Assembly: GCA_015064585.1 (NCBI GenBank)
Contig: SVRY01000006.1
Span: 2,209 to 66,208, forward strand
DNA from: Oscillospiraceae bacterium
GTDB lineage: Bacteria; Bacillota; Clostridia; Oscillospirales; CAG-272
Direction: 5' to 3'
DNA length: 64,000 nt
A program made the position numbers and the translations under genes. Within the stretch, counting starts at the first letter, position 1. Every line of letters begins with the position of its first letter. The notes below the pieces were generated by a model, which was not told the origin of the DNA, ran no database searches, and was given only the letters and a program-made list of their open reading frames with translations. Shown here piece by piece: positions 29,616 to 41,830 of the stretch.

Positions 29616-31802
29616 ATGATGTCAACTGAATTTAAAATGCCTCCTGCCGTGATTCTTGCGGGCGGTGAAGGAAAACGGCTTAGACCGCTGACCGCAACAA
29701 CCCCCAAACCGTTGTTGCCAATGTTGGGGGAACCTCTTTTATTCCATATTTTACGGCGTTTAGAATCGATGGGGGTGGAGAGGGCATATTTGATGACCGG
29801 TTATCTTGGCGAAAAAATAAAACAGGCTCTTACACAGTATAGGGGAAAACTAAAGCCTGTTTGTATCCAAGAAGAACAGCCAAAGGGGAGTGCCGGCTGT
29901 CTTACCCTGATTCCCGGCTTGCATACAGAAAAAGAATGTATCGTTGTTAGCGGAGATGCGTATTTTGAATTTGATTTGCGCAGTGCTGTGGCGCTTAAAA
30001 GAGAGAAGGAGGCGGCGGCAGTATTGTGTTTGGCGCGGGCGGAAACTCCGATTGGATTTGGATTGGTGCAGAGTGAGGCGGATGGAAAAATCAAAGGGTT
30101 TATTGAAAAACCGACCTGGTCAAGAGTTCAGAGCGACTTGGTGAATACGGGAATATATATTTTGGGAGAACAGGCGCTTTCTATGATCTCAAAAGCACGA
30201 TTGCCGTTGGATTTTGGCGCAGATGTTTTTCCGGCGTTGTTGCGAAGCGGCGCTTTACTGTACAGTAAAGAAGGGCAGGGGTATTGGTGCGATGTGGGCA
30301 CTCCTACCGCTTATCGCATGTGTAATCTGCGTCTTTCCAAAGGTCAAAATATTTTAGGGCGAGGGGTCAAATTGGCAACCACTGCATCCCTTAGCGAAAG
30401 TGTTTTATTTGATGCAGTCCAAGTTGGAGCGGGGGCTACGGTAAAGTGCAGTGTAATCGGCGAGAATACTATTGTGGGAGAAGGTGCTACGGTGGAGGAA
30501 GATACTACGGTGGGCGCTTCTTGTGTGATTGGTGAACGCAGTTATGTGGGAAACGGTGTTTCTTTGCCTGCGGGTACGATTGTTGCGGCACGTTCTGTTT
30601 TGAAGGCTGATTTCAATATGGAGAAACAAGGACTTTTTACGGATGGTTGTTTGGTCTTGCACCCATTGGGGAATGCCTGTCGTTGCGGCAGACGTGTTGG
30701 CAGAGCATTTGCAGCATGCGCGGGCCAAGATGGGAGTATTGCACTTTTGCGCAGTGAAAAAAAGGGACAATCAGATTTTGTGAAGGGGTTGGCAGAGGGA
30801 ATTCTTGCCGGCGGCATTGGTTTGAAGGATTGCGGGTGGGGATTTCCTGCCATGGCTTCTTTTGCAGCGCAAAGCGGTAAGGCGGTTTATACTCTGTTTT
30901 TGGATGAAACGAAGGATGCAGTAAAAATTTGGATCTTTGATAGAAACGGTTTGTATCCCGATGCTCGTTTTGAAAGAGAGTTTTCTGATAATGCAAGGGA
31001 AACTCCTGCGGAAGCGGAAAGGGCGGGGGAGATATCTACTGTAAAAGAACTCAAGGATCGGTATTGCCTGTCGCTTGGTCTGATGGGAGGAAACACGGGA
31101 TCGCTACAGGGAATCACGGCATATGTCGCCGAAATCGAAAGCCCGGTGGGGGCAGTTCTTGAAAAGGCGCTAAAAATGCAAGGCGCTGCTATTTCGGAGA
31201 AAGCAGATATTTTCTTTTGGCCAAGCGAGGATGGCAGGCGGGTGGACACAACGATATGCGGTGTGCATGCCGGTTGGTGGCAGATTTTTATGGTATTGGC
31301 TCTTGAAACAGCAAAATTGAACGGAATGGTATTTCTTCCGTATTGCTGCCCTGAAATAATTAAGAGAGCGGTGACAGGAGCCGGCGGAAAGATAATACAT
31401 TATATGATGTATCCTGAAAATGATGCCGAAACCAATTTGCGTATGCGGTTGCTCAGAGAACAGCCATGGTTGCAGGACGGGCTTGCCGCTGCCATGATGT
31501 TTTCTTCCATGATCGCTTCCGGCTCTTTGCATGCGGCAGAGCTTACTTCCGTTTGTCGGGAGATGACTGTGAATGAAGTGAATGTTGATGCATGCGATAC
31601 CGATACCAAATTGCGCATGATTGTTTCTCACAAACAGGATTTTGACGGAGAAGGAATGTTGCGCAAATACAGGGAAGGCAATGTGCGTATCATAGCTAAA
31701 TCAGAAGGAGCAATGCATTTGATGGCGGAAGCGGCGGACATGGCAGATGCGGCGGAGCTGATTCGAAAGGCTAAAAAAGAAATTTTAGATTTTGGTGTAT
31801 AA
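29616..31802 (+). CDS. Sugar-phosphate nucleotidyltransferase (mannose-1-P guanylyltransferase-like) with hexapeptide repeats and degenerate phosphomutase-like C-terminus
   Basis: ILAGGEGKRLRPLT..PKPLLP, FIEKP, NTGIYI and YWCDVG motifs; hexapeptide repeats. Confidence 0.85.
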   Translation: MMSTEFKMPPAVILAGGEGKRLRPLTATTPKPLLPMLGEPLLFHILRRLESMGVERAYLMTGYLGEKIKQALTQYRGKLKPVCIQEEQPKGSAGCLTLIPGLHTEKECIVVSGDAYFEFDLRSAVALKREKEAAAVLCLARAETPIGFGLVQSEADGKIKGFIEKPTWSRVQSDLVNTGIYILGEQALSMISKARLPLDFGADVFPALLRSGALLYSKEGQGYWCDVGTPTAYRMCNLRLSKGQNILGRGVKLATTASLSESVLFDAVQVGAGATVKCSVIGENTIVGEGATVEEDTTVGASCVIGERSYVGNGVSLPAGTIVAARSVLKADFNMEKQGLFTDGCLVLHPLGNACRCGRRVGRAFAACAGQDGSIALLRSEKKGQSDFVKGLAEGILAGGIGLKDCGWGFPAMASFAAQSGKAVYTLFLDETKDAVKIWIFDRNGLYPDARFEREFSDNARETPAEAERAGEISTVKELKDRYCLSLGLMGGNTGSLQGITAYVAEIESPVGAVLEKALKMQGAAISEKADIFFWPSEDGRRVDTTICGVHAGWWQIFMVLALETAKLNGMVFLPYCCPEIIKRAVTGAGGKIIHYMMYPENDAETNLRMRLLREQPWLQDGLAAAMMFSSMIASGSLHAAELTSVCREMTVNEVNVDACDTDTKLRMIVSHKQDFDGEGMLRKYREGNVRIIAKSEGAMHLMAEAADMADAAELIRKAKKEILDFGV

Positions 31803-31859: not shown

Positions 31860-32465
31860 ATGAAAAAAATACTGATACTATGCCTGGGGATCGTAATATT
31901 TTGTTCTGCTATCCTGTTTTTGCCCACTTCGTATGACAGAGCGATTTATGATAAGACCCTGAGATTGCATGTGCTTGCCAATTCGGATTCTGAAGAGGAT
32001 CAAGAAAATAAGTTGGCAGTAAGAGATCGTGTTTTGGAGGTGTTGTCCGAACAAATGCAGGCGTGTACTTCCCGTAGCGAGGCAGAGGGGATGCTTTTAG
32101 AAAAAGAAGAATTGTTGCTGTCAGAATGCAGCGAGGTGCTTTCGGAAAAAGGAAGCAGTCATTCGGTGGCACTGAAGATCACTGAAGAGTACTATCCTAC
32201 CAAGGAGTATGATGATATCGTATTGCCTGCAGGTCGGTATTTGTCCTTGCAGATTTGTATCGGAGAAGCGAAAGGCAGGAATTGGTGGTGTGTATTATAT
32301 CCGCCGGTTTGCATGGGTGCTTGCTCGGCAAAAGAAAAATTACAGGGCGCGGGATTTGAGGAAGAACAAGTAAAACTGGTCAGCGAAGAAAAAGAGATTC
32401 GCTATGCTGTAAAATTCAAGATTTTAGAAACAGTTGGAAAATTTTTTGGCAGTTTGTTTGGATAA
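31860..32465 (+). CDS. spoIIR: Stage II sporulation protein R
   Basis: LRLHVLANSDS.EDQ..KL.VRD, LPAG.Y and G.NWWCVLYPP.C motifs. Confidence 0.97.
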   Translation: MKKILILCLGIVIFCSAILFLPTSYDRAIYDKTLRLHVLANSDSEEDQENKLAVRDRVLEVLSEQMQACTSRSEAEGMLLEKEELLLSECSEVLSEKGSSHSVALKITEEYYPTKEYDDIVLPAGRYLSLQICIGEAKGRNWWCVLYPPVCMGACSAKEKLQGAGFEEEQVKLVSEEKEIRYAVKFKILETVGKFFGSLFG

Positions 32466-32599: not shown

Positions 32600-32628
32600 T
32601 TGACATTCTTGCGAGAATATAGTACAAT
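32600..32628 (+). promoter_or_regulatory. Sigma-A promoter of the envelope operon
   Basis: TTGACA (32600)-17 nt-TACAAT (32623). Confidence 0.7.
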
Positions 32629-32635
32629 TACTATT

Positions 32636-33007
32636 ATGGATAATTTTAATGTGTCGGTATTTGTCAAATGGATGACAATGCTTTTAACCCTTGCCGCACT
32701 GTTGTGGATCGGATGCGGTTGTGAAAAACAAAATGATAAATTCCCGGGCGGAGAAAACGGAAATGAGACGTTTTCTTTTTCCGGTGCGGAGCAGACAGAG
32801 GAAGAAGGCTTTGTTTTAAATACTGCCTCTTCTCGTATTCATGTGCCCGATTGCCCATATGCCGAGCGCACTGCCAAGGAAAATCGGCTATGGGTTTCCG
32901 ATGTGAAACAAGCTTTGGCAGAGGGATATGATTTTTGTAAGCATTGTCTTGGGGAAAAGTCCGATGCAGATATAAAAAACGAGGAACAGCAGAATGCAAA
33001 ACAGTAA
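32636..33007 (+). CDS. Small putative lipoprotein with Ada-like Zn-binding domain
   Basis: Hydrophobic signal ending IGCGC; FVLNTASSRIHVPDC...GYDFCKHC (H-x3-C...C-x2-C). Confidence 0.7.
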   Translation: MDNFNVSVFVKWMTMLLTLAALLWIGCGCEKQNDKFPGGENGNETFSFSGAEQTEEEGFVLNTASSRIHVPDCPYAERTAKENRLWVSDVKQALAEGYDFCKHCLGEKSDADIKNEEQQNAKQ

Positions 33008-34418
33008 TAATAAGATGAAAATTAGCGTTTCCGGTATAAAACGTCTTTTGATTTGCGCGGTATCAGTGGTACTGCTTGCGGCATTGGTGATGGGTATTCT
33101 TGTGGCGATCAATGCATACCGCAATAGCGGTAAAGGCATTCGAAATGTGACTGTGTTGAAAAGCGAGCACTTTACGTTAACATTGCCTATGTATACTTAT
33201 TACTATCGTTCCATGGGTGAAGGCGCAGATTATGATCTGGTGGCAATGGCATTGTCAGAGCAAATGGCGCTGTATGAAGCGGCACTGGCTGACAACAACA
33301 GTCTGTCGCAAGAACGGAAAACTGTGTTGGAAGCGCAACTGCAGTCTATTGAGGAGGCTGCTGAAGAAATGGAAGTTTCCTGTGATGAGTATTTGGCAGT
33401 AACCTACGGAAGAGGTGTCAAAATCAGCGATATTCGTTCTTTGCTCACAATGACAGCGCTGGCTGATCAAAAATATGAAATGATTTGGGAATCCATTGCG
33501 GTTTCGGAAAACGAAATGGCGGATTATTGTAAAGAGAATGAAGAGGCATTCCTGTATTGTGATTATTTATTCTATGTATTTTCTGTCCCGTTGACAAAAG
33601 ATATGAACGAGGATGAGCAGGATCAGTTAATTGCACAATATGAAGCCTATGCCAATCGTTTGGCGGAAAGCAAGGATGTGCAGACATTCTTGGATATGGT
33701 GGTGGAATATGAGGAGCAGTTCGTCAAAGAAGAGGATGAAAATGCTTCTTTTACCGAAAATGACATTGCTTCTATCCGTAAGTCGGTAAAATATGAACGC
33801 ATGCCCTACAGTGAATATACAGAGGGGAATGCAATTGTCAAAGAAATCAATCAGTGGCTGTATTCTACCGACCGCACTGTCGGCGATCATATGGTCAATC
33901 CGTATACCAAGCCGGAGAATAATATTGCTACTTTTGGGGTGTATTATATGACCCGTCCACTGTATACCAATACGGATCTGACACACACCTTTTACGATAT
34001 TCAGCTGCTGTTTTCCAAGTATACTGAGTCTGCAGCTGAATCGGGCATCAAGCAGGCAGAAGCGCTCTATAAAAAGAATCCCAATGAAACTACTCTGCAA
34101 GAGCTTGCCAAACAGTATGGAGGCGGTCTTTGCCGGAATGTGGCGTGTACGAACGCTTTGGATGATGCGTTATATACCTGGTTGAAAGAAGAGCGCGCTT
34201 CAGGGGATGTTTTGGTATACAAGAGCTCAGACGGTTGGCACATGGCGTGCTATAAACAAGCAGGTATTCCCGAATGCTATGCGCAGGCAAAGGCAATTTT
34301 GGAAAAAGAAGCTTACGATGCGCAAATGGGAACCTATAGAAAGGCACATGCGGTAACTGTTACCCCGAACAGTTATTACGATCTGCCCGAACTGAATTAC
34401 GGTTGGCTGATGATTTGA
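32994..34418 (+). CDS. Membrane-anchored hypothetical protein, weakly PrsA/SurA foldase-like
   Basis: Single N-terminal TM; helical SurA-N-like segment (YLAVTYGRGV) and two degenerate parvulin-like units ending WL...R..GD. Confidence 0.55.
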   Translation: MQNSNNKMKISVSGIKRLLICAVSVVLLAALVMGILVAINAYRNSGKGIRNVTVLKSEHFTLTLPMYTYYYRSMGEGADYDLVAMALSEQMALYEAALADNNSLSQERKTVLEAQLQSIEEAAEEMEVSCDEYLAVTYGRGVKISDIRSLLTMTALADQKYEMIWESIAVSENEMADYCKENEEAFLYCDYLFYVFSVPLTKDMNEDEQDQLIAQYEAYANRLAESKDVQTFLDMVVEYEEQFVKEEDENASFTENDIASIRKSVKYERMPYSEYTEGNAIVKEINQWLYSTDRTVGDHMVNPYTKPENNIATFGVYYMTRPLYTNTDLTHTFYDIQLLFSKYTESAAESGIKQAEALYKKNPNETTLQELAKQYGGGLCRNVACTNALDDALYTWLKEERASGDVLVYKSSDGWHMACYKQAGIPECYAQAKAILEKEAYDAQMGTYRKAHAVTVTPNSYYDLPELNYGWLMI

Positions 34419-34430
34419 TGAGGTTTGGAT

Positions 34431-35369
34431 ATGAATAGAATCCCGCAGAATGATCCCGGTTTTTTGGCATTTCAAAGAAAACTGAGATCTGAAAACAGAA
34501 AAAGACGGTGGAAACGTACAGCAGTTATTTCAGCGGTTGTGGTGCTTATTCTTGGATTGTTGGCAGGTGGAGTGATTTGGATTTACCGTTCTGCTGATAT
34601 ACCAAATGCAGAACCTAACGACGCTCCTTTGCATGAAACACCAAATGACACCCCCTCTCTTGAAACAGGCGATGGGGGAGATGAGAATAATCAACCTCCC
34701 AGCACGAGTACACCTTCCAATGATGATCCCGTGGATCCTCCGAATGATCGCGATGACGGCAAAACCGTTGTATATATAGATGCAGGACACGGGTTTGCCA
34801 ATTCCTACGGTGTTGCGGACAAAGGTGCGGGTGACGGTACCCCCTATCACGAGCTGACAGGTAAGCATGAAAGCGATCTGAATCTGGATGTGGCTTTTAA
34901 GTTGAAAGAGCTGCTTTTGGAAAAGGGATATGAAGTAATCATGATGCGGGAAGGCGAGAGCGCCGAGCATGTAACGGTTAACGACCGTGTAAACAGAGTA
35001 AACAATTCAATCGCTGATATTTTTGTTTCGATCCACGCGAACAGTAGTGATACGCCCACTGCTAGCGGTGCGCGCTTATATTATAGCACTCTGAATGTGG
35101 CTGCCATGAAATGTCAGAAATACGCAAGCGTTATGGCGGATGCTTTGAATGCCACCGAAGGAGCGTCACTGAAAAAGGTAAATGTGTTTACCGACAGACC
35201 GGACGTTGCTGTAATCAAAGGTATTAGAATTCCCACGGTTCTTGTTGAAACATGCTTTATGACCAGTGCAGAAGATGCTGCTTTGGCAGCGACCGAGGAA
35301 TGGACTGTGGCAATGGCCACAGGTATTTGTCTTGGTATTGAAAACTACTTGGCACAGACTGCCGGCTGA
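34431..35369 (+). CDS. N-acetylmuramoyl-L-alanine amidase (Amidase_3), TM-anchored
   Basis: YIDAGHG, ESDLNL, FVSIHAN and VLVETCF Zn/catalytic motifs; Pro/Asp-rich linker. Confidence 0.92.
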   Translation: MNRIPQNDPGFLAFQRKLRSENRKRRWKRTAVISAVVVLILGLLAGGVIWIYRSADIPNAEPNDAPLHETPNDTPSLETGDGGDENNQPPSTSTPSNDDPVDPPNDRDDGKTVVYIDAGHGFANSYGVADKGAGDGTPYHELTGKHESDLNLDVAFKLKELLLEKGYEVIMMREGESAEHVTVNDRVNRVNNSIADIFVSIHANSSDTPTASGARLYYSTLNVAAMKCQKYASVMADALNATEGASLKKVNVFTDRPDVAVIKGIRIPTVLVETCFMTSAEDAALAATEEWTVAMATGICLGIENYLAQTAG

Positions 35370-35388: not shown

Positions 35389-36615
35389 ATGCAAAATAAA
35401 GTTAGATATCTTTCTCTTTTCTGTGTATTTTGTTTTATTATCAGTGCGGTTTTCATGCTTTCCGGATGCGGTTCCGGAAAAAATTCTGCGGCTGACGATA
35501 AAGTTATGTTTTCGGTTTTGCTGCGGGACAGCGAGAGAGGAACACATTATCAGTTTGATATTAAACGTTCGGAGTGCTCGGCTACACAAGCATCTGTTTT
35601 GGACAGACTGGAAAATTCAGGTATGCGAATTGCGGTGTCTGTTTCGAAATCCCCCGACCAAATGACCGATAATGAGCGTCAAAAGCTGATTTCGGCAATT
35701 ATTGAGGAATATCGAAGAATAGAAAACGAAGAAAATAAGAATAATGGAAGTACTGTTACACCGGAAGATCCCACTCCCGGTATGGATCCGATGAAAGAGC
35801 CGGTTACACTCTCGTTGTCAGACGCGGAAAGCGGAGCGACCTATTCATTTACGTTTGACGCAAGCGAACTCAGCGATGAAGATAAGGCGTTGATCACTGC
35901 GCAGATTGAAAGCGGAACGCTTATAATGGATATCCAAGAAGATCCTGCAGAGATGACCGAAATACAAAAGCAAGATTTGTTGGCAAAGATTATTTCCATA
36001 CTCAGTTATGTGCCGCCTGAGCCCATTGCAACGGTGCTGATCGATGCAGGCCATGGGTTTGCCAATTCGGAAGGCGTGATTGACAAAGGAACCGGCCACG
36101 GATCTCCGTACTATGATTTAACAGGAAAGTATGAAAGCGATCTGAACCTTGCGATTGCATTGTGCTTGAAAGAAAAACTGATCGATGCGGGTTTTGCAGT
36201 GATTATGATCCGCGAAAGTGAGGTTTTTGAGACGCTGGGTATCAATGACCGTGTGCGCCGTATCAATGCACTTGGGGCGGATATTATGATTTCGGTACAT
36301 GGAAATGCGGCAGGTGCTACCGCAAGCGGTGCTCGCGTATACTGGAACAGAAAGAACAGACATGCCGAAATATGTGAAGCATATGCCCAAACAGTGACTG
36401 ATGCCATTAACAGTGTGGAAGGAACCACTTTGGTGGAGGCAAAAATGTATGAAGGTGACTATGCAGTGGTGCGCGATGTACATATTCCGTCTGTTCTTGT
36501 GGAAACCTGTTTTTTGACCAACCAAGCAGATGCGCAAATGGCAAGCGATCCAATTTGGGTCGAACGTATGGCGGACGCTTTGTGTCTTGGCCTTCAAAAT
36601 CAATACGCAAGTTGA
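35389..36615 (+). CDS. N-acetylmuramoyl-L-alanine amidase lipoprotein with two N-terminal repeat domains
   Basis: Lipobox LSGC; LIDAGHG, ESDLNL, ISVHGN and VLVETCFLTN motifs. Confidence 0.92.
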   Translation: MQNKVRYLSLFCVFCFIISAVFMLSGCGSGKNSAADDKVMFSVLLRDSERGTHYQFDIKRSECSATQASVLDRLENSGMRIAVSVSKSPDQMTDNERQKLISAIIEEYRRIENEENKNNGSTVTPEDPTPGMDPMKEPVTLSLSDAESGATYSFTFDASELSDEDKALITAQIESGTLIMDIQEDPAEMTEIQKQDLLAKIISILSYVPPEPIATVLIDAGHGFANSEGVIDKGTGHGSPYYDLTGKYESDLNLAIALCLKEKLIDAGFAVIMIRESEVFETLGINDRVRRINALGADIMISVHGNAAGATASGARVYWNRKNRHAEICEAYAQTVTDAINSVEGTTLVEAKMYEGDYAVVRDVHIPSVLVETCFLTNQADAQMASDPIWVERMADALCLGLQNQYAS

Positions 36616-36634
36616 TGAGAAATGAGGTGTGCGT

Positions 36635-39514
36635 GTGAATCGCGAATTTGATGAACGTGATCCGGATAAAGAACCCGATGATCTGAATTTTGCAGAAGAT
36701 GGATCCGAAAATGATAAAAATGAAAAAGAAAATGATGCCGAAGAAGAGCTCGGGTTTGAAATAACTGAGGTTGATGATGCGGAAATTGCACCGGTAATTG
36801 TTGATAATGATGCCAAAGAAGCTGAAGATTCCGCTTTGGATCAAGAACTGTTGGATGAACTTGTGATTGCAACACAACAGTCGGATAAGAAAAAACGAAT
36901 CAAAAAGATTCTTTTGATCGTTGCAGCGGTATTGCTTGGCTTGGCATTGACGCTTGGTGGTGTAGGTGTTTTCTTGTTTTATCATTATTATAACAAGATT
37001 GATTACCAAAAGCCGGAAGAGATTGATGCAAATGAGCGCGATATCAAACTTTTTGACAGCTTGACCGGGAGCAGATATACATTTACCATTGACTTGATTG
37101 GATTGACCGATGAAGAAACTTTGTTGGTGGATATTTGGTATCTTTCCAATAAAGAATTGGTATTGGAAATCGGCAAAGATCCCGCAACGATGACCGTTTT
37201 GGAAAAAGAAGCACTCAAAAAATTAATTCTGGAAGAATTGCGCAGATTACAGGTGCAGGTTGAGGTAAAACTGCCGGTAATTACTGTATACAATACTGTG
37301 GATGGCAAGGAATATGCTATTGAGATATCGCGGGAATTATTACAAAACGCTTCGGACTATGCGGTAATACTGGAATATATCGCTTTGCATGGCGAGGAAC
37401 AATTGCTGATTGCTTTTGAAGGTCAATTTAATACAATGACCGATGAACAAAAGACGGCATTGTACGCCAAGATTGCCGGTGAGATCCGTGACAGACAGAA
37501 GATAAGATATCCGCTCAATTTGCAGGATGCGGTAAGCGGAAAACAATACGTGATGTATTTATATGAGGAAGAACTCAGCGAAGAACAGGCAAAACAGATC
37601 ATGGCAATGACAGATGTACTGGTTTTGGATGATCTTTCTGTAGATCCTGCAGAGTTGGATGCTGAGGCGCGCTCTGCATTCATTGTAAAGATTTTTGATA
37701 AGATTCAGGATGCGTCTATTGCTCGATATACGATTTTACTGCGCGATCCCGCTTCCGGAACGGTATATTCCTTTGTGCTTAAGCAAAACGAACTGACAAA
37801 TGTACAACTTGTGGAGATTGTAAAACAGATCCACCGCGGTATGCTGGATCTGCCCTTGTCCTCGGATCCCAATTTGTTGGATACCGAAGGTAAACAACAG
37901 GTTGTTCAGGATATATTGAAGGCAATCGAACTTCTGGAAAATCCTCCAAAGGTCTATCAGATTACAATTAAGGACCGTACAAGCGGGAAAATGTATATTT
38001 TGTCGTTTGATGAAAATGAGGCGACTGATGATCAGTTAATTACGTTGCTTACCAAGATCAGTGAAGGGGCTGTAATACTGGTTCCTGTTTTGGGCGATCC
38101 CGCATTGATGAATGCGCAAGAAAAGAAGGCATTGATAGAAGAAACCGTCGCGGAGATCTTGAATCCTTCACGTGCGTTGTCTTTGATGGATCCCGCAACC
38201 AAGCAAACGTATACTTTGTATTTCAGAGATACCGATGTAAGTGCATCTCAGCTTAGTTATTTGGCAGCTCAGATGCAAACAGGAAAGCCTTTTGAGATAA
38301 ATCTTTCTAAAGATCCTGCAAGCATGACTGCAAGTGAAAAGGCAGCTTTGTTGGAAGCGATTATAACAAAATTGCAGGCGCCTCCGGTGGTAGAGTATAA
38401 ATTCCCTGTGCGTGACCCCGAAACCGGTACAGCGTATATTTTGGTGTTTACCAAAGATGAGATCGGTGATGAGTCTGTGTTTGGCTATTTGCTGGAACAG
38501 GCACAGAAGGGAACTGCGTTGGATGTGGCAGTTTCTATGGATCCTTCTAAAATGAGTGCGGAAGATCGCAAAGCATTGTTTGCGGCTGCCGTGGAAGCGA
38601 TCAAAAATGTTGAAAACAATAATGAAGATCCCGAGTTACTGGAAAAACTGCTGGAACATCTAAACAGTATTGCGCAAAATCCCGTTCAGCACACCGAGAA
38701 CATTTACAATGTACTGTTGGTTGGTACTGACGAACGCGAGAATTATACTGCGAAAAACTCGGATACCATGATTGTTGTGACGCTGAACTACAAAGATAAG
38801 ACGATTACCCTGACTTCGCTGCTCAGAGATACTTGCGTAAAGTTCAAATATATGTCGGGTGGAAAAGAACGTGAAGTGGTTACACGTCTGAACAGCGCAT
38901 ATGCAATTGGCGGTATCAAAACGCTTATTTCGGCGATTGAGTCAAATTACGGACTTAAGATCGATAACTATGTCAGTGTTAACTGGTTCTCTTTCCTGGA
39001 TGTGTTTGAGGTGTTGGGCGGATTGGAGATCGATATTCCTCAGTCGGAAATTTCGAAGATCAATAAGGTAATTTCCTTACAAAGTCCCATTACTATCGGT
39101 CATAACGGAAATGCGGATCTTATAATCAAGAGCGGTAAACAGATGCTGAATGCCAATCAAATCCTTGCGTATTGCCGTTACCGTGATACGCAGGCAGACT
39201 TTGCGCGTACGCAGCGTCAGCGCCAAGTGTTAAAACTGGTGTTTGAAAAATTTAAGGACAGTGACATCTTTACGATTAATGAGCTGTTGAATAAGGTGCT
39301 TCCCTGCATTACCACCGACTTGACGGAAGGGAACTGCGCCGCACTGTTAAAGGATTTTTTGACGATCATCAATTGCAAGATGCAGGATCTTCGTTTGCCT
39401 GCATATCTGGAATACACGAGTAAAGACGGTATGCTTTGGCCTGATTGGGAAAAGACTTTGAAGAGAATGTACGGATTGGCGTACGGATCTCTTTGTCCCG
39501 AACAGTATAAATAA
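36635..39514 (+). CDS. LCP (LytR-CpsA-Psr) family protein with seven tandem repeat domains
   Basis: Acidic cytoplasmic N-terminus, one TM, then C-terminal NVLLVGTDER, SDTMIV, SLLRD, RLNSAY, LAYCRYR and DFARTQRQR motifs. Confidence 0.92.
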   Translation: MNREFDERDPDKEPDDLNFAEDGSENDKNEKENDAEEELGFEITEVDDAEIAPVIVDNDAKEAEDSALDQELLDELVIATQQSDKKKRIKKILLIVAAVLLGLALTLGGVGVFLFYHYYNKIDYQKPEEIDANERDIKLFDSLTGSRYTFTIDLIGLTDEETLLVDIWYLSNKELVLEIGKDPATMTVLEKEALKKLILEELRRLQVQVEVKLPVITVYNTVDGKEYAIEISRELLQNASDYAVILEYIALHGEEQLLIAFEGQFNTMTDEQKTALYAKIAGEIRDRQKIRYPLNLQDAVSGKQYVMYLYEEELSEEQAKQIMAMTDVLVLDDLSVDPAELDAEARSAFIVKIFDKIQDASIARYTILLRDPASGTVYSFVLKQNELTNVQLVEIVKQIHRGMLDLPLSSDPNLLDTEGKQQVVQDILKAIELLENPPKVYQITIKDRTSGKMYILSFDENEATDDQLITLLTKISEGAVILVPVLGDPALMNAQEKKALIEETVAEILNPSRALSLMDPATKQTYTLYFRDTDVSASQLSYLAAQMQTGKPFEINLSKDPASMTASEKAALLEAIITKLQAPPVVEYKFPVRDPETGTAYILVFTKDEIGDESVFGYLLEQAQKGTALDVAVSMDPSKMSAEDRKALFAAAVEAIKNVENNNEDPELLEKLLEHLNSIAQNPVQHTENIYNVLLVGTDERENYTAKNSDTMIVVTLNYKDKTITLTSLLRDTCVKFKYMSGGKEREVVTRLNSAYAIGGIKTLISAIESNYGLKIDNYVSVNWFSFLDVFEVLGGLEIDIPQSEISKINKVISLQSPITIGHNGNADLIIKSGKQMLNANQILAYCRYRDTQADFARTQRQRQVLKLVFEKFKDSDIFTINELLNKVLPCITTDLTEGNCAALLKDFLTIINCKMQDLRLPAYLEYTSKDGMLWPDWEKTLKRMYGLAYGSLCPEQYK
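37043..38605 (+). repeat. Seven tandem ~72-80 aa protein repeats within the LCP protein
   Basis: Each unit begins h-x-h-x-D-x-x-(S/T)G-x-x-Y and most end DP-x-x-(M/L)-x-x-x-(E/Q)K-x-AL; aligned by eye. Confidence 0.85.
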
Positions 39515-39648
39515 GTCTGTAAATAATATTTTAGGGAGTTGGCTGTAAAGTCAACTCCCGCGACTTTTTTTGAAAAAAATAGAAAAGGTACTTGACAAAG
39601 CGTCTTTTGTGTGATATTATACTTTAGGTTTCCGTAGGATGCTTATAT

Positions 39649-40351: not shown

Positions 40352-41830
40352 ATGGCGGACACAAGCATTTATCAAGATATTGCAAAGCGTACGGGCGGAG
40401 ATATTTATGTGGGAGTGGTTGGTCCTGTGAGAACAGGAAAATCCACACTGATCAAAAAGTTTATGGAGGGGCTGGTGCTGCCGGGGATTGCCGATGAATA
40501 TGACCGCAAGCGGGCAAGGGATGAACTGCCGCAAAGTGCAGGCGGAAAGACAGTGATGACAACGGAGCCGAAATTTATTCCCGATGAGGCGGTGGCATTG
40601 ACGCTGGACGATATGTCGGGGGTGAGGGTGCGTCTCATTGATTGCGTCGGATATGTTGTTCCCGATGCGCTGGGGCAAACCGAGAACGGTGAGCCGCGAA
40701 TGGTGCACACCCCTTGGGATCAAGAACCCATTCCCTTTGTGGAAGCGGCAGAGATCGGTACGCGAAAGGTTATTACCGATCATGCTACTATCGGGTTGTT
40801 GGTTACCTGTGACGGCAGCATTTGCGAGATCCCAAGACACTCCTATGAAGAAGCGGAAGCGAGGGTGGCAAATGAATTAAAAGGATTGGGAAAACCGTTT
40901 GCCATTGTTTTGAATTCAGCACATCCCAATGCACCGGAAAGTATTGCGCTGGCAATGGAACTGGAAGAAAAATACGGCGCGCCTGTGGCGCTTGTCAACT
41001 GCACCGAACTCAATGGAGAGGATATACGTCACATATTGGGTATGATCCTATTGGAATTCCCTGTAAAAGAACTCAAGGTGGAACTGCCTGCTTTTACCTT
41101 GGCGTTGGAGGAAGATCATTGGTTGATGCAAAGCTTGCATGAAAGTATGATCAAATGCGCTTCGGAAATACATAAAATGGGGCAGGTTACGCATGCGGTG
41201 GCGATGATGGGAGAGAATGATAGCGTAGGCAGTGTCAGACTGAAAACTTTGGATATGGGCAGCGGTATTTGCCGAGCGGAAATTCAGCCGATTGCCGGAT
41301 TGTATTACAGAGTGCTCAGTGAACTGACCGGTTTGCGCATTGACAGCGAAGAACAGCTGGTGTCCATGATGCGGGAATTGGCAAAGATCAAAGAAAAATA
41401 CGATAGAGTGGATGAGGCACTGAAAAGCGTTGAAGAAAGAGGTTACGGTATTGTGATGCCTGATGTATCAGAGCTTCGGCTGGAGGACCCGAAAATTATG
41501 AAACAACCGGGAGGCTATGGCGTAAAATTGCGTGCTTCTGCTCCGTCTGTGCATATGATCAAAGCGGATATCGAGACAGAACTCAATCCCATTGTGGGCA
41601 GTGAACAGCAATCGGAGGAATTGATTCGGTATTTGATGCGGGAATTTGAAAACGATCCCGCAAAGATATGGCAGACTAACATGTTTGGCACAACACTATA
41701 TGAATTGGTTAGTGAAGGTTTGCATTCCAAACTGCAAAATATGCCTGAGGACGCCAGAATAAAACTATCTGAAACACTCTCGCGTATCATAAATGAGGGA
41801 ACAAACGGGCTGGTATGCATTTTACTTTGA
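40352..41830 (+). CDS. spoIVA: Stage IV sporulation protein A
   Basis: IYVGVVGPVRTGKST, DELPQS, MTTEPKF; 492 aa. Confidence 0.99.
   Translation: MADTSIYQDIAKRTGGDIYVGVVGPVRTGKSTLIKKFMEGLVLPGIADEYDRKRARDELPQSAGGKTVMTTEPKFIPDEAVALTLDDMSGVRVRLIDCVGYVVPDALGQTENGEPRMVHTPWDQEPIPFVEAAEIGTRKVITDHATIGLLVTCDGSICEIPRHSYEEAEARVANELKGLGKPFAIVLNSAHPNAPESIALAMELEEKYGAPVALVNCTELNGEDIRHILGMILLEFPVKELKVELPAFTLALEEDHWLMQSLHESMIKCASEIHKMGQVTHAVAMMGENDSVGSVRLKTLDMGSGICRAEIQPIAGLYYRVLSELTGLRIDSEEQLVSMMRELAKIKEKYDRVDEALKSVEERGYGIVMPDVSELRLEDPKIMKQPGGYGVKLRASAPSVHMIKADIETELNPIVGSEQQSEELIRYLMREFENDPAKIWQTNMFGTTLYELVSEGLHSKLQNMPEDARIKLSETLSRIINEGTNGLVCILL

Follow-up and report, generated by a model that had tools for sequence, protein, structure and literature searches.

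A repeated extracytoplasmic module shared by an adjacent amidase and LCP protein of an uncultured Oscillospiraceae bacterium

The 64,000-nucleotide stretch of DNA analysed here (the window; positions 2,209 to 66,208 of contig SVRY01000006.1, assembly GCA_015064585.1, from an Oscillospiraceae bacterium) carries two adjacent genes for cell-wall enzymes in which a module of ~75 residues is repeated, twice in one protein and seven times in the other. Both genes, and with them all nine copies, lie on the + strand. The first, P0001 (35389 to 36615; amidase 2 in what follows), encodes a protein of 408 residues in which a lipoprotein-type signal (LSGC, with Cys27) is followed by copy A1 (residues 39-118; 35503 to 35742), a Pro/Asp-rich linker, copy A2 (residues 139-213; 35803 to 36027) and an Amidase_3 domain (residues 216-404; 36034 to 36600; Pfam E 1.3e-35). 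Copy A2 abuts this catalytic domain, and the lipobox precedes both copies. Two copies, with a Pro/Asp-rich linker of ~22-60 residues between them, are present in all six of the amidases examined. Assignment to Amidase_3 is given by 123.4 bits over profile positions 1-174 of 174, against a cut-off of 27, and amidase 1, the product of the preceding gene, scores 125.3 bits. The model for the spore-cortex amidase CwlD (TIGR02883) gives 74 and 82.4 bits for the two amidases, against its equivalog cut-off of 221.55. In the Pfam scan, nothing rose above threshold over residues 28-215 of amidase 2.

The second gene, P0002 (36629 to 39514), encodes an LCP transferase of 961 residues, one of the enzymes by which teichoic acids, capsules and further glycopolymers are joined to peptidoglycan. 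Beyond its N-terminal tail (residues 1-91) the chain enters a hydrophobic transmembrane (TM) helix of 25 residues (94-118; 36908 to 36982) preceded by a KKKRIKK cluster, and the positive-inside rule predicts an N-in protein with this single TM helix and an extracytoplasmic catalytic domain. The seven copies follow, and a conserved helical linker (residues 667-709) joins the array and the LytR_cpsA_psr domain (residues 710-876; 38756 to 39256). The latter matches PF03816 at 120.6 bits (cut-off 24.6; positions 1-149 of 150; E 8.1e-35) and the NCBIfam LCP model TIGR00350 at 93 bits (cut-off 62.3), and the equivalog models for TagU, LytR and CpsA are missed, at 96.4, 90.2 and 55.1 bits against 450, 441 and 650. 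A Foldseek search with a full-length model of the protein returned 22 structures at E <= 0.001, all of the LCP family (3pe5, and the TagT/U/V, LcpA and Cps2A types), and the catalytic fold is therefore confirmed; the C-terminal part of the model has a low predicted local distance difference test (pLDDT) score. Pfam gave nothing above threshold over residues 119-709. The cytoplasmic tail (36629 to 36901) is unusually long at ~90 residues, predicted to be disordered, and strongly acidic (pI 4.05, net charge -22); conservation is lower here than anywhere else in the LCP protein, at 25-47% identity to five orthologues. In both enzymes, as the initial annotation had stated, the repeats sit between the membrane anchor, whether lipobox or TM helix with its KKKRIKK cluster, and the catalytic domain.

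The copies of the LCP protein occupy residues 137-215 (R1; 37037 to 37273), 216-293 (R2; 37274 to 37507), 294-366 (R3; 37508 to 37726), 367-442 (R4; 37727 to 37954), 443-514 (R5; 37955 to 38170), 515-589 (R6; 38171 to 38395) and 590-666 (R7; 38396 to 38626). Their hairpin motifs lie at residues 139, 218, 296, 369, 445, 517 and 592, 72-79 residues apart, and those of the amidase at residues 41 and 141. An alignment by eye in the initial annotation had taken all of these segments for one module of ~75 residues, and this holds: the nine copies, of 72-80 residues, align over their full length with few gaps and stand where they had been placed, with the last ending ~20 nt further on than first given. 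When each copy was scored with a profile built from the other eight, all nine were recovered, at 52.9 (A1), 60.8 (A2), 37.2 (R1), 17.7 (R2), 36.6 (R3), 54.7 (R4), 53.1 (R5), 57.1 (R6) and 51.9 bits (R7), against 6.0-10.3 bits for the best of 1000 shuffles per copy; for R2, the most divergent, the shuffles reached at most 6.0. Comparison by blastp within a database of the nine sequences joined 26 of the 36 copy pairs at E <= 10, mostly at E 1e-5 to 2e-11 and 24-34% identity. Both tests bear on whether the segments align significantly at all, and in both they do. The relation between the two proteins can also be reached from the amidase side, as a profile made only from the four amidase copies of two other loci, from other organisms (L023 and the metagenome contig L027), gives the LCP protein of the window 193.7 bits, where the highest-scoring of 2000 shuffled arrays reaches 10.3. 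Taken one by one, R1 and R4-R7 are recovered by this narrow profile (i-E 1.6e-7 to 1.4e-14), and R2 and R3 are missed.

The copies are 19-33% identical to a reference copy and, as expected at this level, no tandem repeat was found in the DNA; judged by sequence, the repeat is old and diverged rather than recently amplified. Columns conserved across 27 copies are L5, D7, G11, Y14, E22, Q27, G38, L41, V45, D48-P49, M52-T53, A59-L60 and I68. These would correspond to hydrophobic positions of the core, a Gly in a turn and the D-P of a helix cap, and no shared ligand site is obvious among them. All copies in the window are acidic (pI 4.05-5.26), giving the array a net charge of -34, compared with a pI of 8.4 for the LCP domain.

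Against the libraries of known families the module finds no place. It had been set apart by eye from LysM, SH3b, SLH, CWB2, PASTA, AMIN and G5, and scans of the nine copies extend this to every other Pfam and NCBIfam model. Searched singly against Pfam at E <= 10, the copies hit nine unrelated families, each from one copy of the nine (best E 0.006); searched as whole proteins at E <= 1, the two enzymes matched their catalytic domains and sub-threshold noise only, with SPOR, POTRA and choline-binding families likewise unmatched. NCBIfam has no model in the repeat region, no PHROGs family was matched by more than two of 27 copies, and sequence profile searches of the PDB ended at best E values of 0.15 and 0.51. 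The protein Atlas held no usable match for LCP residues 443-666 or 515-589, and a full-text literature search, limited to main texts, listed no description of such a domain. Two local resemblances were considered and set aside. Catalase-rel (PF06628) and the catalase 4e37 match only ~23-40 residues at the DP-x-x-M-T-x-x-E-K cap (17.1 against 30.1 bits; E 0.15), and hints of Tautomerase_2 and of 3c6v were dismissed in the same way as motif resemblance.

Structure prediction leads to the same point. With a 27-copy alignment, AlphaFold2 models R6 alone at a mean pLDDT of 80.1 and a predicted template modelling score (pTM) of 0.59, with strands at 2-7 and 12-17, a helix at 25-37, a short strand at 41-42 and a second helix at 54-69. 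This is the order of hairpin, helix, short strand, DP-x-x-M-T cap and helix that had been read from the letters, with which the predicted secondary structure agrees. A model of the full-length LCP protein from a 10-row alignment (mean pLDDT 67.9, pTM 0.32) predicts this beta-beta-alpha-beta-alpha unit at all seven positions, at a block pLDDT of ~75-88 per copy and with 2-7 residues between the last helix of one copy and the first strand of the next. The check by AlphaFold and Foldseek that had been proposed for single and tandem units yielded no fold in the PDB or BFVD at E <= 0.001 for the repeats: of the 146 PDB matches that a single copy had at E <= 10, not one reached E <= 0.001 (best E 0.96, TM-score 0.27), its best E in BFVD was 0.38, and the full-length model matched nothing significantly besides LCP structures. 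Among the non-significant top matches in the PDB, of single copy and full-length model alike, ubiquitin-like beta-grasp domains recur. The search for an already described family, made in Pfam, NCBIfam, PHROGs and the PDB, thus gave no significant match, and the module represents a domain family described by none of the libraries searched, probably of a simple alpha/beta fold with no detectable relatives. As such it is a candidate new Pfam family and perhaps a new small fold.

The family is a narrow one. In the 2.39-Mb assembly to which the window belongs, these nine copies are the only ones that the profile detects. A HMMER search of 1.84 billion representative proteins at E <= 0.001 returned 21 proteins, ten of which belong to the family: the LCP protein of the window, LCP proteins of 929 and 1119 residues, four LCP fragments and three amidases of 413-451 residues. 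Carriers in this collection are therefore only LCP proteins with seven or nine copies, amidases with two, and their fragments. The other 11 (P0012, P0013 and P0015-P0023) were taken as the additive noise of repetitive proteins, covering only 17-42 of the 76 profile positions in many stretches. Nine of these were scanned with Pfam (all save P0017 and P0022), and seven carry other repeat families (aRib in two, DUF11, fn3, FG-GAP in two, and Ig_7/PKD); P0015 has weak unrelated matches only and P0023 none. In a collection of 5.8 billion proteins, the 27-copy profile found seven LCP proteins of 923-1119 residues. Six-frame searches were made on samples of genomes, such that absence refers to the genomes searched. 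Copies were present in two of 41 genomes of relatives, the window's own included; in a family-level sample, four of 401 genomes matched, two of them spuriously, and true copies beyond the window occurred only in a congeneric species; in an order-level sample of 30 families, none of the 400 other genomes matched. A scan of genome contigs gave no match with P0002 alone as query and the loci L023-L026 with the alignment labelled A2. The congeneric carrier is a metagenome-assembled genome (MAG) of an Oscillospiraceae bacterium, and a relative of the first operon gene comes from a MAG of a Ruminococcaceae bacterium. From these occurrences, the domain appears confined to a small clade of uncultured Oscillospiraceae- or Ruminococcaceae-type Clostridia.

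The two spurious genome matches (G130, E 5.6e-4; G364, E 8.8e-4) fall on MTNEERNALLKEILKKI, the helical C-terminal part of a 512-residue protein that is read as a putative large serine recombinase. The loci concerned (L015, G130:C30, 205 to 2985; L016, G364:C9, 159 to 2720) encode near-identical 512-residue proteins in different genera, each directly beside a gene for a SpoIVB-like peptidase whose product ends in VCVNL, and may represent a mobile or sporulation-excised element inserted at spoIVB.

Within the family, the number of copies is all but invariant in its pattern. When copy-number variation was examined, six of eight full-length LCP proteins had seven copies and two had nine, with the array spanning 522-529 residues in all six of the former and 676 in both of the latter. 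Identity to five orthologues is 44-58% over the array and 55-63% over the catalytic domain; by this measure the array is constrained, slightly less than the enzyme domain. A maximum-likelihood tree of 31 copies groups them mostly by position, with amidase copies 1 and 2 each forming a group of their own, and leaves most deeper forks unresolved (two of 28 inner branches are fully supported). The full-length alignment likewise shows positional orthology, the two extra copies of P0004 being placed between positions 4 and 5. Neither this narrow distribution nor the fixed copy number with positional orthology had been foreseen in the initial annotation, and the same is true of the conserved operon described below, in which the two genes are joined by those of another amidase and a PrsA-like protein.

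Other LCP proteins do without the array. Two further members are encoded in the window's genome, in frames of 337 and 339 residues. In three other Clostridia MAGs, LCP proteins with an LF(F/Y)HYYN juxtamembrane motif and a catalytic domain 28-29% identical occur in frames of 368-372 residues, with no repeat copy and no amidase neighbour. On this comparison, the array is an insertion into ordinary enzymes and would be dispensable for catalysis, as the short LCP proteins share both motif and catalytic domain.

The two repeat-bearing genes close a row of four on the + strand, comprising a 474-residue protein (32994 to 34418), amidase 1 (34425 to 35369), amidase 2 and the LCP protein, with gaps of only 6, 19 and 13 nt. 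A sigma-70-like promoter match (TTGACA-17-TACAAT, 11 of 12; 32600 to 32628, +) lies ahead of this operon, and a terminator-like hairpin of 11 pairs followed by a T run (39534 to 39559, +) begins 20 nt past the LCP stop codon; both are consensus matches only. The row is flanked by SpoIIR (31860 to 32465) and SpoIVA (40352 to 41830). The 474-residue protein, membrane-anchored and the first large product of the operon, is without a Pfam or NCBIfam family, as are its 16 close relatives with respect to Pfam. Its sole distant match is P0045, a parvulin-type (PrsA-like) protein with the rotamase families PF00639/PF13616 (24% identity, 87% coverage, E 1.1e-10), and it is possibly a degenerate PrsA-like foldase travelling with the repeat-bearing enzymes. 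Relatives of it lie on contigs of 26279, 115462 and 7000 nt, sizes that match those of three contigs with repeat-bearing LCP proteins. Amidase 1 has an N-terminal hydrophobic anchor, a low-complexity linker and an Amidase_3 domain (residues 116-307; E 3.5e-36), and the repeat-profile search found no copy in it. Its linker, of ~60 residues rich in Pro, Asp, Asn and Thr, is placed where amidase 2 has its repeat copies; in the amidase 1 of L027, the equivalent linker is a DKEDPD repeat.

Gene order is retained at L023, which has the NTP-transferase, SpoIIR, a small open reading frame, the 474-residue protein, amidase 1, amidase 2 and the LCP protein in succession, and L027 keeps the last three in order. 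In the 14-kb stretches beside SpoIIR in five other genera of the family, SpoIIR itself was present in all five and the other eight window genes queried in none; spoIIR is thus not generally accompanied by the cluster. The small open reading frame (32636 to 33007) overlaps the start of the 474-residue gene and encodes a lipoprotein-like signal, LLWIGCGC, together with a C-terminus rich in Cys and His, HVPDCPY...FCKHC, which we take to be reminiscent of Ada-type zinc-binding motifs; a homologous stretch in L023 is 36% identical. Upstream of spoIIR, a 728-residue protein (29616 to 31802) combines an N-terminal sugar-nucleotidyl-transferase domain with hexapeptide repeats and a C-terminal half that is long and uncharacterised; in L023 it is syntenic, at 56% identity.

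Short linkers, a conserved array length, uniform negative charge and a position between anchor and enzyme together suggest a stalk or scaffold. We tentatively infer that the module forms a fixed-length extracytoplasmic structure of this kind, placing both enzymes in the same zone of the wall. Inserted behind the membrane anchor and ahead of the catalytic domain in two enzymes that one operon encodes, an N-acetylmuramoyl-L-alanine (MurNAc-L-Ala) amidase and an LCP glycopolymer transferase, the copies would be non-catalytic and would behave as semi-rigid, negatively charged beads on a string. Both catalytic domains would then be held off their lipid anchors in the same zone of a thick wall, such that glycopolymer attachment and stem-peptide removal could occur on the same peptidoglycan. 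The array would bend or lie along the wall, rather than stand as a rigid upright ruler, and such a course is probable because the LCP domain must reach its membrane-bound donor. As the low-complexity linker of amidase 1 is in the equivalent place, all three enzymes of the operon would carry some form of spacer.

Several observations weigh against a stalk. Solved LCP relatives have been crystallised with octaprenyl-pyrophosphate lipid (entry titles of 3tep, 4de9 and 6uex), and a rigid stalk of 530 residues would be expected to take the active site away from such a donor, making a literal "height ruler" awkward. The repeats of classical stalks are variable in number and often near-identical, and the fixed number and position-specific sequence found here would fit position-specific roles such as the binding of partners. 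Exact length is not conserved in the amidase, where the linker from A1 to A2 ranges from ~22 to ~60 residues, and the full-length model, at its pTM of 0.32, does not give the geometry between copies. A domain common to adjacent wall enzymes is, moreover, a hallmark of wall-targeting modules. Fixed copy number and position-specific conservation would fit targeting and docking equally well.

A targeting domain, binding a feature of peptidoglycan or the secondary wall glycopolymer attached by this LCP protein and so recruiting both enzymes to one substrate, is a less probable account. Precedents include the CWB2 repeats of LytB and LytC and the LysM, SPOR or AMIN domains of other amidases. The module is found in two adjacent enzymes that both act at the MurNAc of peptidoglycan, its copy number is fixed, and the orthologous group formed by each repeat position, together with the array identities given above, indicates real constraint; an LCP gene beside an amidase operon also has a precedent, as passages of a 2008 survey place lytR beside lytABC (PMC2632651). 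However, the module resembles no known wall-binding family, both proteins already have a membrane anchor, the module occupying the stretch from anchor to enzyme instead of a free terminus, acidic copies are poorly suited to anionic wall polymers, and the residues conserved in all copies look structural. The same position-specific conservation would suit specific partners if the amidase copies instead paired with the LCP copies, the PrsA-like protein or amidase 1 to form a multi-enzyme wall-remodelling complex. Restriction of the module to two protein types whose genes are always adjacent (the window, L023 and L027) is in keeping with this, as are the matching contig sizes of the 474-residue partner's relatives, but like-charged acidic arrays would repel one another and seven tandem copies exceed what a docking site needs, such that docking of this kind seems doubtful. 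A computed complex of the amidase copies with the LCP array scored 0.00, without controls, and is counted for neither side.

It is improbable that the module is instead a very divergent form of a known small alpha/beta fold, for example a trimmed ubiquitin-like beta-grasp that inherits the function of its family. Beta-grasp domains include those that bind soluble ligands in polysaccharide export proteins, and the order hairpin-helix-strand is that in which the beta-grasp starts. The best single-copy Foldseek matches are PI3K RBD, TBK1 ULD, elongin B and SUMO, and the full-length model, after the LCP structures, matches PI3K, USP7 UBL arrays and talin/kindlin FERM heads. None of these is significant, however (single copy E >= 0.96, probability <= 0.20 and TM-score <= 0.29; full-length model E >= 0.03), no Pfam beta-grasp family was matched, and a long helix closes the predicted unit at the point at which the beta-grasp has two more strands. 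Quite as speculative is an array that would take an active part in wall assembly instead of serving as a passive spacer: a position-specific scaffold of seven stations that would grip a lipid-linked or growing glycopolymer, or nascent glycan strands, and feed it to the LCP active site, with the two matching amidase copies docking on the same track. Were this the case, the ligation of glycopolymer and the trimming of stem peptides would be tied together physically, at a fixed distance from the membrane, and LCP enzymes would have a new organising principle that rests on a new fold.

A conserved array of 530 residues in an LCP protein, with the same domain in the adjacent amidase, would be a natural experiment on the distance from the membrane at which LCP enzymes can work and on their partners. 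The weight of this is limited, since the domain occurs in only a few uncultured Clostridia of gut or rumen type and its function is inferred only. Among the closest known systems is that of CWB2 (CW_binding_2) in Bacillus subtilis, in which a non-catalytic tandem repeat is found in neighbouring wall proteins, one of them an Amidase_3 enzyme, with an LCP gene adjacent. There, LytB and the Amidase_3 enzyme LytC share the CWB2 repeats. The adjoining LCP gene is lytR, placed beside lytABC in the survey passages cited above (PMC2632651). Unlike that system, the present repeats have no match to PF04122, are acidic and lie between anchor and enzyme, both proteins are membrane-anchored, and the LCP protein itself bears the repeats. 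POTRA and PASTA resemble the module as extracytoplasmic tandem alpha/beta domains of ~70-75 residues in envelope-biogenesis proteins, with low identity between copies and conserved identity by position. POTRA is, however, beta-alpha-alpha-beta-beta and PASTA an alpha helix plus three strands, whereas beta-beta-alpha-beta-alpha is predicted here, with no match in Pfam or by Foldseek.

The stalk repeats of Gram-positive surface proteins (Rib/aRib, G5-E and SHIRT) are similar in that they too are arrayed in tandem, linking a cell anchor to a functional domain, and would determine reach through the wall. Those repeats are all-beta, vary in number, are in many cases nearly identical to one another and occur in LPXTG adhesins, in contrast to the alpha/beta copies described here, which are 19-33% identical, fixed in number and found in enzymes. 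The aRib proteins met in the profile search (P0013 and P0016) are spurious partial matches over ~20 profile positions. Cps2A-type LCP proteins also have an additional extracytoplasmic domain, which follows the membrane anchor on the N-terminal side of the catalytic part, and the entries 2xxq, 3tep and 3tel match the catalytic part of the LCP protein. As described in passages of the 2008 survey, Cps2A has three TM helices and a single accessory domain, which differs in fold, and the LCP proteins covered there are of 293-485 residues, in which a short tail and one TM helix precede the LCP domain (PMC2632651), compared with 923-1119 residues here. Unlike Cps2A, the proteins described here insert seven or nine copies of an unrelated module. 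The domain gives rise to an unusual architecture for an LCP protein, within a setting, that of non-catalytic repeat modules in wall enzymes, which is already known as a kind.

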